A stretch of DNA of 29,068 nucleotides. It comes from an uncultured Clostridia bacterium. Lineage in GTDB: Bacteria > Bacillota > Clostridia > Christensenellales > UBA3700. Each line of letters opens with the position of its first letter. Within the stretch, counting starts at the first letter, position 1. The DNA is taken from NCBI GenBank assembly GCA_947176115.1, contig CAMWPK010000001.1:1-29068 (forward strand), given 5' to 3'. Below are positions 3,355 through 11,690 of the stretch, one piece after another. Under the pieces are notes generated by a model. It saw only the letters and a list, made by a program, of their open reading frames with translations, made no database searches and was not told the DNA's origin. Position numbers and translations under genes: made by a program.

Positions 3355-3993
3355 TTATTTGAACTCTAACGTATTATTGGGATATTCATTTACAAATCTG
3401 CTCACAACGTCTATAATAAGTCCCCATTCATAATTATCGTAAGTCTTTTGTGTCTTTATTTTTTGTAAGTCAAAATTGAGAAATACAAACTTTATATTCT
3501 CGCTATAATTACTCCATAAAAAATCATTGAGTAAATCTGCGTTATAATGGCAATTTTCTATATTTTCAAATTCAACGCTGTTTTTCCCGTCAAGTTTATT
3601 ATATATATCGTTATAGAACCCTTTGAAAGTATAGTGACCGTATGAGGCGTAATTTGTTTTATCAATGACAATTTTATTGACGAATTCGCCTACGCAATTT
3701 TTGAAAGTCAAGGTGTTATTTGAGCTAATCAAAACCAATCCGTTTATAGCGCTGAATATTTCTTTCCATTTAACGTCGTCATAACTTTTGCCTTCTGTAA
3801 TTTTGCTTAAATCAAAGCCTATAACGACAAATTGAAAACCTATAGCTCTGTTTTGCCATAAAAATTCACGAAGATTATCTAAGTTATACTCAAGATTAGC
3901 AATATTAAATTTATTCATTAATTTATCATAAAAACCCTTATAAGTAGAGTTTCCATATGTAGCATAATCATTTTTATCAATAATTATTTCCAT
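3355..3993 (-). CDS. Tandem double barstar-like immunity protein
   Basis: Two similar halves are present: IIIDK..TYKGFY..YNLDNLREFLW..NTLTFK and IVIDK..TFKGFY..YNADLLNDFLW..NTLEFK. The motif resembles the barstar NLDALWD motif. Its SD (AAGGAG) overlaps the upstream RNase stop. Confidence 0.8.
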   Translation of the reverse strand: MEIIIDKNDYATYGNSTYKGFYDKLMNKFNIANLEYNLDNLREFLWQNRAIGFQFVVIGFDLSKITEGKSYDDVKWKEIFSAINGLVLISSNNTLTFKNCVGEFVNKIVIDKTNYASYGHYTFKGFYNDIYNKLDGKNSVEFENIENCHYNADLLNDFLWSNYSENIKFVFLNFDLQKIKTQKTYDNYEWGLIIDVVSRFVNEYPNNTLEFK

Positions 3994-4006
3994 TATTATA
4001 TTCTCC

Positions 4007-4570
4007 TTATTTCACTTGATAAAAAGTAGTTTCGCCATGGTCGGGCGAAAAGAACATTAGACCGTCATTTGAGTAAAACAACCTTTTGCTATTTCTTGCG
4101 CCTGATATATAATCTATATCGCATTCATACCAGATTCGTCCGTCTTGTAGCGGAAGAATAAATCTACTGTTATAATAGATATCTCCGCCAATCATTTTTC
4201 CAGGAGCTTTGCCAGCTAGGGTATTTTTTCTATAACTCCAACCATATATTTCGTTTGCTTGTTTTTTGGTTATATAGTAGTCAGGCAATTTATTATATAA
4301 AGTTAACCAAACATCTGGTGAGTCAAGACCTTTTTGTGATATAGTACCCACTGGCTTTACCTCAATATCTTTGTAAAAGCAGTCACAATTTGGATGAGCA
4401 GGTAGCGTAGGTTCGGTCTTTCTTAGAAATATTCTATATTTCCTAGAGTTGCAATCCCAACACGGGATTTTACAATTTCCTTGATGTTTATACTGTATAA
4501 ATTCTGACTTGTTCTCTTTTTGTTTTTTATTGGACAAGAAAAAACCAAGCACGTTTTTGAACGCACTCAT
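4007..4570 (-). CDS. Barnase-family ribonuclease toxin with an N-terminal MuF-like CxxC..HPNCxC domain
   Basis: The C-terminal ~110 aa align by eye with barnase (KLPDYYITK, GW, APGK.IGGDI, GR.WYECDIDY.SG.RNSKR..YS.DGL, DH), including the equivalents of catalytic K27, E73, R83, R87 and H102. The start is moved to ATG 4570, behind the SD AAGGAGGT. Confidence 0.88.
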   Translation of the reverse strand: MSAFKNVLGFFLSNKKQKENKSEFIQYKHQGNCKIPCWDCNSRKYRIFLRKTEPTLPAHPNCDCFYKDIEVKPVGTISQKGLDSPDVWLTLYNKLPDYYITKKQANEIYGWSYRKNTLAGKAPGKMIGGDIYYNSRFILPLQDGRIWYECDIDYISGARNSKRLFYSNDGLMFFSPDHGETTFYQVK

Positions 4571-4621
4571 ATTATACACCTCCTTGTGTAAATTTACAAT
4601 AGTATTTAGGGGAGTGAGAAT

Positions 4622-7110: not shown

Positions 7111-9636
7111 ATGGAAGAGAAGAAAGATAATATTTTTGAAATGCTGGATAAGACCAACGTCGTAGAAGTAGACGCTATCAACGAGATGAAGACCTCCTTT
7201 ATTGCATACGCAATGGCGGTCAACGTATCAAGAGCTATTCCTGACGTAAGGGACGGACTTAAGCCGGTTCACAGAAGAATTCTTTACGCAATGAACGAAT
7301 TGGGTCTTACGTCCGATAAGCCTTTCCGTAAATGCGCGCTTATCGTCGGCGACGTGCTTGGTAAATACCACCCGCACGGCGATTCTTCGGTATACGACGC
7401 ATTGGTAAGACTTGCGCAAGACTTTTCTATTAGATGTACGCTAGTTGACGGTCACGGTAACTTCGGTTCTGTTGACGGCGACCCTGCGGCCGCGTATCGT
7501 TATACGGAAGCAAGACTTAGCAAGATTGCCGACGAAATGATAAGAGATATAGATAAAAAGACGGTAGACTTTTATCCCAACTTCGACGATACGAGAGAAC
7601 AGCCTGTCGTACTGCCGTCGAGATACCCCAATTTGCTTGTCAACGGCTCGGACGGTATTGCCGTTGGTATGGCTACGTCCATTCCTCCGCACAACCTCGG
7701 AGAAGTTATAGACGGTACTATAGCGTTGCTTGAAAATCCGGAGCTTGACGTTGACGGAATTATGGAATATATTCCCGCTCCCGATTTCCCCACAGGCGCG
7801 TATATTATGGGCGGTGGCGGAATAAAGAAAGCCTATCGCACGGGTAGAGGTAACTGTATCATAAGAGCAAGAGCTGAAATAGAAGAAAACGACCGTTCCG
7901 GCAAGTCTAAGATTATTATTTCCGAGATTCCGTATCAGGTCAACAAGGCTAAACTCATAGAGAATATGGCTGACCTTGTAAAGCAAAAGAGAATAGAGGG
8001 TATTGCAGACATTCACGAGCTCTCCGACAAAGAGGGTATGAGAATAGTCGTAGACGTCAAGAAAGACGCCAATCCGCAAGTCGTGCTCAATATGCTCTAC
8101 AAGCACACTCAAATGCAGATCTCTTTCTCTATGATAATGCTTGCGCTTGTAGACGGTACGCCAAAGGTACTCAATATCAAGCAGATACTTGAAGAATATA
8201 TCAAGCACCAAAAGTCAGTTGTTGTCAGAAGAACGCAGTACGATCTAGACAAGGCTTTGGAGAGAGAACATATTTTGCTCGGACTTGTCAAGGCTTTGAC
8301 CAATATAGACGAAGTCATTGAAACAATTAAGAAATCCAAAGACAGACAGTCGGCTATTGAAAATCTTATGAACGGCTTTGAACTAAGCGATAAGCAAGCC
8401 ATTGCAATTCTTGAAATGAGATTGCAAAGACTTACCGCTTTGGAAGTAGAGAAGATTCAGGAAGAACTTGCCGAACTTGAGAAGACGATTGCAGATTTGA
8501 GAGATATACTCGCTAAACCGCAAAGAGTAGTTGAGATTATAAAGACGGAACTTTTGGAAATCAAGAGCAGATACAACGACAAGCGCCGTTCGGAAATCAC
8601 CTACGATTATTCCGATATTGACATCGAAGATTTGATAGAGGTAGAGGACGTAATTCTTTCCATTACTCACAACGGTTATATCAAACGTATGCCCGTAGAC
8701 GAGTACAAGGCTCAACGCCGTGGAGGCGTGGGCATATCTGCGCACAAGACCAAGGAAGAGGACTTTGTAGAGAACGTAATCACCACGTCTACCCACGACA
8801 ATATCCTTTTCTTCTCCAACAAGGGTAAGGTATACCGCGCTAAGGGCTATCAAATACCTGAGGCGAGCAGAACTTCAAAGGGAAGAGCTATCGTCAACTT
8901 GCTCAATCTTGAGCCGGGAGAAGTTATCAATGCTTACGTGCCTGTACCTAAGGACAGCCAAGGCTTCTTGATGCTTGCGACAAAGCAAGGTCTTATCAAG
9001 AAGACGACACTTGACGAATACGTGCGTATCAACAACAACGGCAAGAAAGCCATCACCTTTGCAAACGAGGAAGACGAACTTATCGGCGTACAACTCACTA
9101 GCGGTCAAGACGAAATTATTATGGCGTCAAGCGGTGGCAAGTGTATTAGATTCAGCGAAGAGGACATCAGACCTACCGGCAGAACGAGTATGGGCGTCAA
9201 GTCAATCAAGCTCGACAAGGGCGAAGTAGTAGTGGATATGACCAAGGTCAAAGAGGACTGCGAAGTACTCACCATCACTGAGAACGGCTACGGCAAGCGT
9301 ACGGATATCAGCGAATACAGACTGCAAGGCAGAGCCGGTAGCGGTATCAAAGTCGGCGTACTCAACGACAAGACGGGTAACGTCGTCAACCTCAAACTCG
9401 TTCATCCGACAGAGGACGACGTAATGATTATCTCTGACAACGGTATTATCATTAGAATTAAAGCCGACGAAATCTCTAAGATAGGCAGAAATACTCAAGG
9501 CGTCAAAGTCATGAGAATGAAAGATAGCAATTCTAAGGTAGTAGCGTTCACTATCGTACCTCACCAAGAGGACGAGGAAACGGCAGACACGCAAAGCGTG
9601 GATACGGCATCGCAAAGCGAGATCTCCGGCAAGTAG
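7111..9636 (+). CDS. gyrA: DNA gyrase subunit A
   Basis: [29 protein letters not shown] and the GyrA-box QRRGGVG are present, followed by C-terminal pinwheel repeats. Confidence 0.99.
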
Positions 9637-9687
9637 TCGAGAATAACAACACGACTGACGGAGAGTAAAATAGCGAATAGCAATAAT

Positions 9688-9716
9688 AAATAGCGTATCG
9701 AAAGGTACGCTATTTT
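9688..9716 (+). terminator. Intrinsic terminator after gyrA
   Basis: AAATAGCGTATC-GAAA-GGTACGCTATTTT. Confidence 0.75.
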
Positions 9717-9790
9717 CTAAATTATAAAATTCGTGTCATAAAGAGTTTATACGGGTATTGACACTATATCGTACAATAAAAGTAAAAAGA

Positions 9791-9818
9791 AAAGTTTCGC
9801 TGTGGCGGGACTTTTTTT
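9791..9818 (+). terminator. Second terminator-like hairpin directly before the toxin SD
   Basis: AAAGTTTCGC-TGTG-GCGGGACTTT followed by a T run; the stem includes G-U pairs. Confidence 0.55.
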
Positions 9819-9832
9819 ATGGAGGAGAAAGT

Positions 9833-10423
9833 GTGAGAGAATTAGAAAACGTCAGAAATAGCATATTGCAGATATTCGACAGTGCTAGTTGGATACAATT
9901 TATCCATGAAGGATTATTACCGGCGTATACAAGCCAAGAAAAAGCAAAGAACGTAATCAAAGGGAATTTAAGTAGTCATTGCGCTATCTGTAGAAACATT
10001 AACAGGTGTTGTTTCCCTAAAAACAATATGCCTAAATATCCGTTACATCCAAATTGCCATTGCTATTTGTTAGATATTCCAAGACCGCAAGTGACGGCAG
10101 AATGTCCGGAAGAAAAATTTGAAAGATATATTTTTTCGCCTGAATATGTTGGTAATGGAAAAATACAGTTGTATACAAAGTGGGGGTATGGTAAAATTAA
10201 TACGAAATATCTTGTGAATGAACTTACAAGACAAGCTGATAAAAAATATTCAAACGGTGATTTTGAACTCGGTCTGTTAAACGAATACGGTCAGCGTATT
10301 TCTATTGTGACAGAGTTAAATCGATTAGACGGGAAAGGAATAGTAAAATTTTTGACGGGTTGGATGGTATATCCCGATGGCAAAATACAATTGACAACGC
10401 CTTATGGAGGAGAAGTAAAATGA
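9833..10423 (+). CDS. Putative polymorphic toxin: MuF-like CxxC..HPNCxC domain fused to a DUF6883-like domain
   Basis: CAIC..YPLHPNCHC is followed by PEEKFERYIF..GK..WGY..NEYGQR..TGWMV..LTTPY, recognised by eye as DUF6883-like. The start is moved to GTG 9833, behind the SD GGAGGA (9821-9826). Confidence 0.72.
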   Translation: MRELENVRNSILQIFDSASWIQFIHEGLLPAYTSQEKAKNVIKGNLSSHCAICRNINRCCFPKNNMPKYPLHPNCHCYLLDIPRPQVTAECPEEKFERYIFSPEYVGNGKIQLYTKWGYGKINTKYLVNELTRQADKKYSNGDFELGLLNEYGQRISIVTELNRLDGKGIVKFLTGWMVYPDGKIQLTTPYGGEVK

Positions 10424-10797
10424 AAGAATACGATTACGTTGAAGTAACAGTAGAGAAAGAAAAGTACGCCAAACAAGGAGTACACAAAGGAATGAGGGGC
10501 ACAATATTAGACCCTCGCAATATAGACGGTTGTTGGTTGGTATTTTTTGAAGACGACCCGTTTGGAACAGCAATAAAGGAAGAAGACTTGAAGTTAATTT
10601 ATGAAAACGTGAAAGAGCCAATTGAAATACTAGTAAGGGTAATAGTAGAAAAAGAAGAGTATGCTAAGCAAGGCGTACACAAGGGGATGCAAGGAATGGT
10701 GTATGATATTACAGCAGAGAATAATTGCTTACAAGTGTTTTTCACAGAAAACAAAAGTGTACTAATAGATATATTCGATTTGAGAGAAGTAAAATGA
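10420..10797 (+). CDS. DUF4926-like putative immunity protein with two tandem domains
   Basis: MKEYDYVEV..YAKQGVHKGMRGTILD..WLVFF, followed by a second YAKQGVHKGM unit. There is an ATGA overlap with the toxin stop. Confidence 0.72.
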   Translation: MKEYDYVEVTVEKEKYAKQGVHKGMRGTILDPRNIDGCWLVFFEDDPFGTAIKEEDLKLIYENVKEPIEILVRVIVEKEEYAKQGVHKGMQGMVYDITAENNCLQVFFTENKSVLIDIFDLREVK

Positions 10798-11000
10798 AAG
10801 AATACGATTACGTGGAAGTTATAGTAGAAAAAGAAAAATACGCAAAGCAAGGCGTACATAAGGGAATGAAAGGCACGATACTTGACCCAAGAAATATAGA
10901 CGGTATGTGGTTAGTAGTTTTTGAAAATCCAATCACACTCGCAGATGAACTTTTCGTGCCAATAAAAGAAGAAGACTTGAAATTTATTTTTGAAGGATAA
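10794..11000 (+). CDS. DUF4926-like putative immunity protein, single domain
   Basis: A near-copy of the first domain of the preceding gene, again with an ATGA overlap. Confidence 0.72.
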   Translation: MKEYDYVEVIVEKEKYAKQGVHKGMKGTILDPRNIDGMWLVVFENPITLADELFVPIKEEDLKFIFEG

Positions 11001-11021
11001 ACCTTTCTACTGAGTAGTAAA

Positions 11022-11117
11022 ATGAAAGAATACGATTACGTGGAAGTTATAGTAGGAAAAGAAAAATACGCAAAGCAAGGCGTACACAAAGGCATGCGAG
11101 GGGTAATATATGAGTAA
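11022..11117 (+). pseudogene. Truncated DUF4926-like copy (31 aa)
   Basis: Reads MKEYDYVEVIVGKEKYAKQGVHKGMRGVIYE*. It is not in the ORF track and stops 8 bp before a REP-like repeat. Confidence 0.75.
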
Positions 11118-11125
11118 ATGCTGTT

Positions 11126-11154
11126 GAGATTTCTCCACTACGGTCGAAATGACA
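11126..11154. repeat. TGTC-tagged REP-like repeat, short variant
   Basis: GAGATTTCTCCACTACGGTCGAAATGACA. Confidence 0.85.
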
Positions 11155-11178
11155 TTAAAATTTTAATTACGTTATATA

Positions 11179-11523
11179 TTATTTTAGCAAAAACAACGCT
11201 ACTACCGCGCAAAACGCAATCAATGCGGTGAAGCCTAGCGTAACGCTTTGTAGTATTATTTGCGTGACGGAGTGCCTGTCTATTTGGCGCAGACGGTGAA
11301 CGCTTTCGGCTTTGATTTTTTGCTCAAGTTGTTTCTCGTCGAGCTTTACAAGTTTGTAATACTTTTCCAAGCCTTTTACTCTGCCGACTTTGACAAAGCC
11401 CTCGGGGAGCGCGCCGATACTCTTCAACTTTTCTTCGCAAAGGCGAGTTTCTTCTTCGCTGGCAAGCATTAAGCCAAAATCAATTTGCTCTCCAAATTCG
11501 TCAAACGCTTTTATCTTTTTCAT
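11179..11523 (-). CDS. Hypothetical protein with a C-terminal membrane anchor
   Basis: SD GGAG before the ATG, and a hydrophobic C-terminus (IILQSVTLGFTALIAFCAVVALFLLK). Confidence 0.7.
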   Translation of the reverse strand: MKKIKAFDEFGEQIDFGLMLASEEETRLCEEKLKSIGALPEGFVKVGRVKGLEKYYKLVKLDEKQLEQKIKAESVHRLRQIDRHSVTQIILQSVTLGFTALIAFCAVVALFLLK

Positions 11524-11550
11524 TTTTTCTCCAAATTAATTAACTTAATT

Positions 11551-11589
11551 AGACCCATTCGACTCCGCTATGCTTCGCTCAGGGTGACA
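11551..11589. repeat. TGTC-tagged REP-like repeat, second subfamily
   Basis: AGACCCATTCGACTCCGCTATGCTTCGCTCAGGGTGACA has the same GACA end and an internal CGCT..CGCT; it is enclosed by a 12-bp inverted repeat. Confidence 0.7.
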
Positions 11590-11690
11590 TGATATATTTA
11601 GAATCTCTAATTAAGTTTAATAGCAACACTTAATTATCGGCTCTTATTATTTTTTATCAAATAGGGCACTTCGACTAGCTCTCGTCGGGA

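Follow-up and report, generated by a model that had tools for sequence, protein, structure and literature searches.

The 29,068-nucleotide stretch of DNA analysed here (the window) belongs to the metagenome-assembled genome (MAG) of an uncultured Clostridia bacterium, a gut organism with a small genome (window genome G000; 174 contigs, 1.38 Mb, 91% complete). Positions 9833-11117 are filled by four co-oriented open reading frames (ORFs), a gene for a putative toxin of the DUF6883 family followed by three shorter ORFs built from units related to the DUF4926 family, which would encode or once have encoded immunity proteins. The original prediction, made from the sequence alone, had described a toxin trailed by an array of four immunity units multiplied in place. 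The two-domain gene, the one-domain gene, the ORF of 31 amino acids (aa), the four cores and the repeated junction that it listed are all present and correctly placed. The features of the locus are the following:

9833-10423, + strand: toxin gene, 196 aa, with a GTG start and the ribosome-binding site GGAGGAG; ends GGEVK-stop
9977-10063, + strand: Cys/His motif of the MuF stub (H49 C50 C53 C59 ... H72 C75 H76 C77), invariant or nearly so in 43 homologues
10097-10420, + strand: predicted BECR-fold, ribonuclease (RNase)-like toxin domain (DUF6883 / BECR-Tox3), aa 89-196
10412-10439, + strand: junction copy 1, in which the toxin stop overlaps the imm1 start (ATGA); 0 mismatches
10420-10797, + strand: imm1 (D_W), two-unit immunity gene, 125 aa, ends LREVK-stop; unit 1 at 10420-10605 (short-loop type), unit 2 at 10621-10794
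10786-10813, + strand: junction copy 2, in which the imm1 stop overlaps the imm2 start; 0 mismatches; likely right-hand crossover of a cassette swap
10794-11000, + strand: imm2 (S), one-unit gene, 68 aa, long-loop type (unit 3)
11014-11041, + strand: junction copy 3, one mismatch, overlapping no stop
11022-11117, + strand: stub ORF, 31 aa, apparently the first ~80 nucleotides (nt) of a two-unit immunity gene with the rest (~340 nt) deleted; scar at ~11101-11107

The 28-nt junction occurs three times in the array and nowhere else in the 1.38-Mb genome, while 100 dinucleotide-preserving shuffles gave 0 matches. A repeat search extends the picture to a 142-nt repeat in three copies (100/84/64% identity) and a 68-nt core in four, in agreement with the four occurrences of the E(K/E)YAKQGVHKGM motif, and perfect stretches of 30-40 nt are shared between copies. 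The N-terminal halves of the units are alike and the C-terminal halves differ; between units 1 and 3, the main difference is an indel loop (short ED-DPFGT versus long ENPITLADELFVP). Over 9600-11600, a promoter and terminator scan returned about as many promoter-like sites as shuffled sequence. ATGA overlaps are found at both the toxin/imm1 and the imm1/imm2 boundaries, and hence the repeated junction does carry translational coupling, as had been proposed. The EVK-stop tail of imm1 was considered as a captured toxin tail and rejected as proof that the toxin end had been copied along, since two-unit genes of the related genomes G014 and G013 bear the same tail with no unit following, which indicates that it is native to this type of gene.

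From its N- to its C-terminus, the toxin consists of a low-confidence helix, a stub with a MuF-type Zn motif and the BECR/DUF6883 domain. Judged from the AlphaFold model (predicted local distance difference test, pLDDT, 90; predicted TM-score, pTM, 0.84), the C-terminal domain has the BECR fold. Residues 89-196 align best with CdiA-CT Kp342 (6cp9_A; Z 8.1, root-mean-square deviation 2.5 over 102 aa, VIA-align), followed by the CdiA-CT EC3006 group (6vek/6cp8, Z 6.3-6.5) and then by RelE/ParE, BrnT and colicin D. Foldseek found nothing in the PDB at E <= 0.001, the fold being seen only with VIA-align; the Foldseek values for the BECR fold are a probability of 1.00 and a TMt of 0.65. Across the homologue alignment, the conserved residues of the domain are K95, K110, Q154, R155, W177, Y180 and T189, all of which except W177, taken together with the fold, point to a putative ribonuclease activity.

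The family names of the original prediction, which were assigned by eye, are supported at the level of the families. DUF6883 (PF21814) matches the window toxin at aa 91-190 with an E-value of 3.5e-5 (24.4 bits, cut-off 27) and 42 of the 43 aligned homologues at E <= 0.01 (best 3.5e-9), and PF21814 is already assigned, in precomputed annotation, to many homologues at 50-76% identity. The build of ~190-200 aa recurs in more than 100 homologous clusters from uncultured Clostridia. An exhaustive search with aa 86-196 retrieved 353 representative clusters, and in all of the 150 best-listed matches the domain lies at or near the C-terminal end. The carriers range from ~120 to 3420 aa, with Rhs-repeat proteins of 904-3420 aa (Rhs confirmed by Pfam) among the long ones. 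Such C-terminal placement in varied carriers is what tip domains of polymorphic toxins usually show, and the polymorphic-toxin context that had been proposed is thereby supported.

Of the PHROG head-morphogenesis families, the N-terminal part of the toxin matches, weakly, the C-terminal ends and nothing else (E 0.0035 and 0.018), which marks it as a MuF stub and not a MuF domain. Phage_Mu_F (PF04233) matches 2/43 homologues at E about 0.003; Pfam gives no match to it in the window toxin, in which no more than the Cys/His end of the domain can be made out. In BFVD, the viral structures that match best are minor capsid proteins of 470-500 aa (E 1.5e-5). On another contig of the same genome (G000:C52:2065-2223, minus strand; L035), a stretch with two internal stops matches Phage_Mu_F weakly (E 5e-4, positions 56-111) and may, from its sequence, be a third, dead MuF-stub gene.

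The model of imm1 shows two SH3/KOW-like barrels (pLDDT 89.6) and matches tandem KOW, SH3 and Tudor domains; no DNA-binding family matches the protein. Against DUF4926 (PF16277), imm1 scores an E-value of 0.1 (12.4 bits versus a cut-off of 29.1) and imm2 goes unmatched, whereas 11/33 two-unit homologues are recognised (best 9.8e-8). A whole-genome scan of G000 with the DUF4926 hidden Markov model found nothing. Searching AlphaFold DB clusters with the two-unit model returned mostly generic tandem SH3/KOW matches, along with two unnamed proteins that are 46-49% identical to unit 1. By the model, the units are barrels of SH3/KOW type, probably akin to DUF4926. Their most conserved motif, residues 11-27, resembles the glycine-rich KOW hairpin and may be structural in role.

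That the toxin is paired with the unit genes, as had been proposed, is supported both by complex prediction and by the distribution of the genes. The whole toxin together with the 125-aa imm1 scored 0.70, compared with 0.48 for the best of three controls. The mark that this score passes is reached by 58/80 solved complexes and 2/110 mismatched pairs, a rough calibration, since own alignments were used. Three runs of the prediction had at least 91% of contacts in common, with a partner pLDDT of at least 87. In the predicted interface, residues 28-51 of unit 1, including the indel loop that separates unit 1 from unit 3, lie on K95, Y99, K110, R155, G176 and T189 of the toxin, and unit 1 would in this model block the presumed active face. 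A comparison of the loop type of the first unit with the predicted interface residues of the toxin revealed no pattern across eight loci.

Among the relatives examined, toxin copies free of evident lesions always have at least one unit directly behind them, and copies that have no unit behind them or are internally deleted are damaged. The toxin of G007 is N-terminally truncated and carries G176D, that of G013 is devoid of aa 77-108 and carries W177C, and in G003 a part of the toxin is fused to a unit. Conversely, G005, G002 and G001 harbor units without any toxin. Immunity without toxin thus exists and undamaged toxin without immunity does not, as is predicted for a toxin-immunity pair.

The history of the array becomes clearer upon comparison with sister strains. 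Six contigs from independent assemblies carry gyrA, a 196-aa toxin, a one-unit gene, a 131-aa two-unit gene, orf114 and ROK, in this order (toxS-S-D). The main part of gyrA is 94-98% identical between the two forms, while its last ~175 nt (9458-9632, the acidic C-terminal tail) are 72% identical. Identity stays at ~70% over 9458-9802 and at ~76-79% over the toxin gene, and the sister toxin is 76% identical to that of the window. From the second junction onward the match is restored: window 10784-11101, which comprises the junction, the one-unit gene, the spacer and the first 80 nt of the two-unit gene, corresponds to sister 484-801 at 94%, and the imm2 protein is 97% identical to that of the gene directly behind the sister toxin. 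The window is then without ~340 nt after 11101; the alignment resumes at sister 1141, and the flank 11107-11526 is 97% identical. The comparison delimits one further feature:

9458-10784, + strand: divergent segment (gyrA 3' tail, intergenic region, toxin, imm1), ~70-79% identical to the sister form, between flanks of 94-98%

The drop of identity inside gyrA (9458-9632) suggests that the left end of a swapped segment lies within this gene, and the ~30 nt of junction identity against a saturated background mark a likely crossover at the other end. The 94% match to the start of the sister two-unit gene, followed by the gap of ~340 nt, indicates that the 31-aa ORF is what the deletion left of a two-unit gene, its 5' stub. 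The truncation noticed earlier is hence real, although what was truncated is a two-unit gene and not a single unit. Strains of one species therefore differ in the toxin allele and have the downstream immunity genes in common.

These observations are most simply, and most likely, explained by a cassette swap with subsequent retention and deletion. A diverged toxin together with its two-unit immunity gene would have taken the place of the toxin allele resident there through homologous recombination, with the left crossover in the 3' end of gyrA and the right one in the ~30-nt junction of toxin end and immunity start that is common to all cassettes. The resident one-unit and two-unit immunity genes would have been left downstream as orphans, and a later deletion of ~340 bp would have cut the last of them to the 31-aa stub. 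In this scheme, imm2 is probably an orphan immunity gene from the displaced toxin allele, and its retention would protect against the sister toxin. Taking the evidence together, we find it reasonably probable that this is a locus of the polymorphic-toxin type whose array stems from such a swap with retained orphan immunity genes and a following deletion, and not from recent local amplification.

Divergence among the units agrees with this scheme. Units 1 and 3 differ by a synonymous divergence (dS) of 1.3, which is saturated, with a ratio of nonsynonymous to synonymous divergence (dN/dS) of 0.06 over the first 43 codons; for imm2, dN/dS is 0.15. Such saturation indicates that the near-identity of the N-terminal halves results from purifying selection. 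The similarity that the original prediction had pointed out is genuine, then, but does not reflect recent copying. In a tree of units, unit 3 joins the single unit of the sister strain (93/88) and unit 2 the second unit of G013 (100/99), while unit 1 is nearest, with weak support (80/62), to the short-loop units of G003, the sister strain, G014, G013 and G001. Judged by these sequences, the four units are old paralogues, each closer to units of other genomes than to its neighbours in the array.

The surrounding slot was followed through 22 other genomes of the genus. The locus lies between gyrA and orf114-ROK in 7/22 of them (G014, G022, G007, G013, G003, G005 and G001) as well as on the sister-strain contigs; in G002, it lies between gyrA and ROK, with orf114 missing. 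The downstream block of orf114, ROK kinase and orf234 is conserved in the genus, and the content of the slot varies. Relatives carry 0-6 units, and orphan units and decayed toxins without units also occur. The slot of G014 holds one two-unit gene, that of G022 four separate units and one more adjoining gyrA, and G028 has two single units. In G013, one single unit and two doubles are present with a toxin 3'-end fragment between them; in G001, units adjoin a C-end fragment of the toxin, and toxin 3'-end pieces lie between immunity genes. The recombination-driven variation in copy number that had been anticipated is thus seen across genomes. A different situation is met in G054 (L023, G054:C62 4520-6274), where three two-unit genes follow one toxin with a period of 561 nt and their units cluster within their own genome (100/99, 95/100). 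By its sequences, this is a true tandem amplification, unlike the array of the window.

Several other arrangements were observed in and around the slot. A 204-aa ORF of G003 (L025, G003:C1 6022-6693; protein P0108) joins toxin aa 64-145 in frame to a unit; its protein cluster is present on 34 contigs, and it may be either a decayed toxin or a stable fusion. Within the window itself, a second MuF-stub toxin lies across gyrBA (3355-4579, minus strand; 33% identical to toxin aa 43-85) and is followed by a 212-aa double partner. In G018 (L019, G018:C43 5906-6879), a DUF6883 toxin and a two-unit gene occupy the slot between orf183 and gyrB instead of the gyrA slot. The presence of toxin loci on both sides of gyrBA, in the window and in G018, suggests that both sides serve as cassette sites. 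Directly after the G018 two-unit gene, at G018:C43 6879-6920, lies the remnant of another unit start (TGATTATGTTGAAGTAATAGT...) with its first codons deleted, which is further evidence of array erosion. At window 9918-10047, 128 nt of the sister-form toxin gene, a length not divisible by three, are missing from contigs of one DNA run and one RNA-library run; contigs from RNA libraries cannot show transcription. From these contigs, some strains appear to carry a broken toxin before an intact one-unit gene.

Two other origins of the array have to be weighed against the cassette swap. The original prediction saw in it a local accordion, with units arising from recent unequal crossing-over in the lineage and the junction forming the repeat boundary at which the copy number changes in situ. 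The three identical or nearly identical copies of the 28-nt junction would suit such a process, the perfect stretches of 30-40 nt could support RecA recombination, and G054 demonstrates that true within-genome amplification exists. However, units 1 and 3 are separated by a dS of 1.3, unit 3 is 97% identical to the sister S gene, unit 1 falls among the short-loop units from five other genomes, and 10784-11101 is collinear with sister S-D. A swap followed by deletion fits these data better, and local copying is unlikely to account for the array. The other possibility is a chimera, in which metagenome assembly joined two co-occurring strains at their common junction. The MAG is in 174 contigs, the point of joining would be a 30-nt repeat, and sister-form contigs are common in mouse-gut runs, three of which carry 10135 joined to 10784 with other letters between. 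Among public runs, none contains half of the words sampled from the stretch. Yet two regions, 9754-9996 and 10497-10671, are matched exactly by contigs of run X1, and the second of these regions spans the passage from unit 1 to unit 2. As the imm1 stop overlaps the start of another unit, no fewer than three units must be real in that strain. The later half of the array recurs at 94% identity in at least five independent assemblies; made up of S and the stub, it is set apart from every sister contig by 6% and by the 340-bp deletion and is hence not just the sister allele already known. The copies, at 64-84% identity, have not collapsed and are too diverged to confuse an assembler at the usual k. 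A chimeric origin is accordingly very improbable, and an assembly artefact, a concern raised with the original prediction, is unlikely.

A further question is whether the toxin acts between cells at all. The locus could instead be an intracellular toxin-antitoxin (TA) or abortive-infection module, with a RelE-like RNase, a labile partner, extra units serving as spare or anti-addiction antitoxins, and no transfer from cell to cell. The BECR fold is common to RelE and ParE, the toxin is small and chromosomally sited, and it has no signal peptide, secretion or trafficking domain or full MuF domain; orphan antitoxins are, moreover, known in TA biology. Against such a module, the partner is encoded downstream and is an SH3-like barrel in which no DNA-binding domain was found, the toxin domain also ends Rhs and other large carriers, phage minor-capsid-like proteins match the model, and swapping of alleles with the immunity genes kept characterises intercellular toxins (PMC5361080). 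The downstream position and SH3-like fold of the partner, the relatives borne by Rhs proteins and the pattern of allele swapping argue for an intercellular toxin, and we regard an intracellular module as rather unlikely. As to delivery, the MuF stub might conceivably be a working tag for capsid or portal targeting, by which chromosomal mini-toxins (this genome has two, one on each side of gyrBA) would enter phage or phage-like particles of another element and be delivered to rival strains. We consider this quite improbable; if it were true, the immunity strings would record particle-borne warfare between gut commensal strains without a linked secretion system. Searches of G000 for SPP1 portal, Phage_portal and HK97 capsid families found none, and a search for full MuF found only the weak, stop-interrupted stretch on contig 52; as the genome is 91% complete, neither proves absence.

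Several points weigh against reading the locus as an intercellular toxin with swapped cassettes. With neither an export signal in the toxin nor a full MuF, portal or capsid gene found in the 91%-complete genome, an intercellular role is presumptive and an intracellular one a serious rival. The scores of the window toxin and of its units fall below the Pfam cut-offs of DUF6883 and DUF4926, respectively. The margin of the complex prediction is narrow (+0.22), the control at 0.48 being one in which an unrelated protein took the place of the toxin, and the predicted interface does not include residues 11-27, the motif in which the units are best conserved. Two alleles cannot fix the direction of the swap, which is here a matter of interpretation, and no single independent run spans the whole array, the contigs covering parts of it.

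Several known systems resemble the locus in part. A computational preprint of 2026 (bioRxiv 10.64898/2026.08.28.747851) independently describes DUF6883 as the BECR-Tox3 profile, with a downstream DUF4926 gene and MuF fusions. The window shares with it the toxin family, the family of the small downstream partner and the link to a MuF motif. Unlike the systems of the preprint, which are C-terminal fusions to Phage_Mu_F, it has a stub of ~45-65 aa, a non-phage locus and a partner array of one- and two-unit genes. With the MuF polymorphic toxins (Jamet et al. 2017, PMC5576092) it has in common an N-terminal part derived from MuF, a C-terminal toxin that varies and, immediately downstream, a small ORF for immunity; it differs from them in having no full MuF and no head-morphogenesis or portal neighbours, and in its fixed chromosomal slot between gyrA and the sugar kinase gene. 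The BECR tRNases CdiA-CT Kp342 and EC3006 (6cp9, 6cp8, 6vek) are the best structural matches (Z 8.1 and 6.3-6.5), but sequence identity to them is 15-19%, the CdiA carrier uses type V secretion and the immunity proteins are unrelated.

The closest parallels for the array itself come from immunity genes of other secretion systems. Type VI secretion system (T6SS) immunity arrays of V. cholerae are built by sequential effector displacement (PMC5361080), and esaG and tsaI, genes of a type VII secretion system (T7SS), undergo recombination between tandem immunity paralogues (PMC9484751). As in these arrays, non-identical paralogues stand behind one toxin, toxin alleles differ while old immunity genes are kept, and the joints lie at conserved gene boundaries. 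In contrast to them, the window has other toxin and immunity families, no linked secretion system, and units that are also fused in pairs. Type II TA systems of the RelE/ParE type, in which the antitoxin binds DNA and is usually encoded upstream, differ in that the partner here lies downstream and matches no DNA-binding family.

The toxin-immunity pairing has already been predicted in the literature, and immunity strings built by displacement are known in other systems. The locus is therefore of a known kind, an orphan-immunity array, in the little-studied DUF6883/DUF4926 family and introduces no new principle. It nevertheless provides a clean natural example of how immunity strings are built, with a parental-type arrangement kept in sister strains, for a toxin family that is known through computational prediction alone. 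It also sets out a pair, together with its cross-pairs, that can be put to the test, namely toxin W and toxin S versus D_W, S and D_S. For annotation, the lesson is that near-identical 5' halves of such units signify strong purifying selection and should not be taken for recent duplication.

Just after the array, at 11121-11157, lies a short palindromic element that is a high-copy dispersed repeat. The contig depth in the bin 11117-11195 amounts to 18-270 in four metagenome runs, versus ~3-8 alongside, and many different loose contig ends occur on both sides of the repeat. The deletion that truncated the last immunity gene stops a few bases short of this element.

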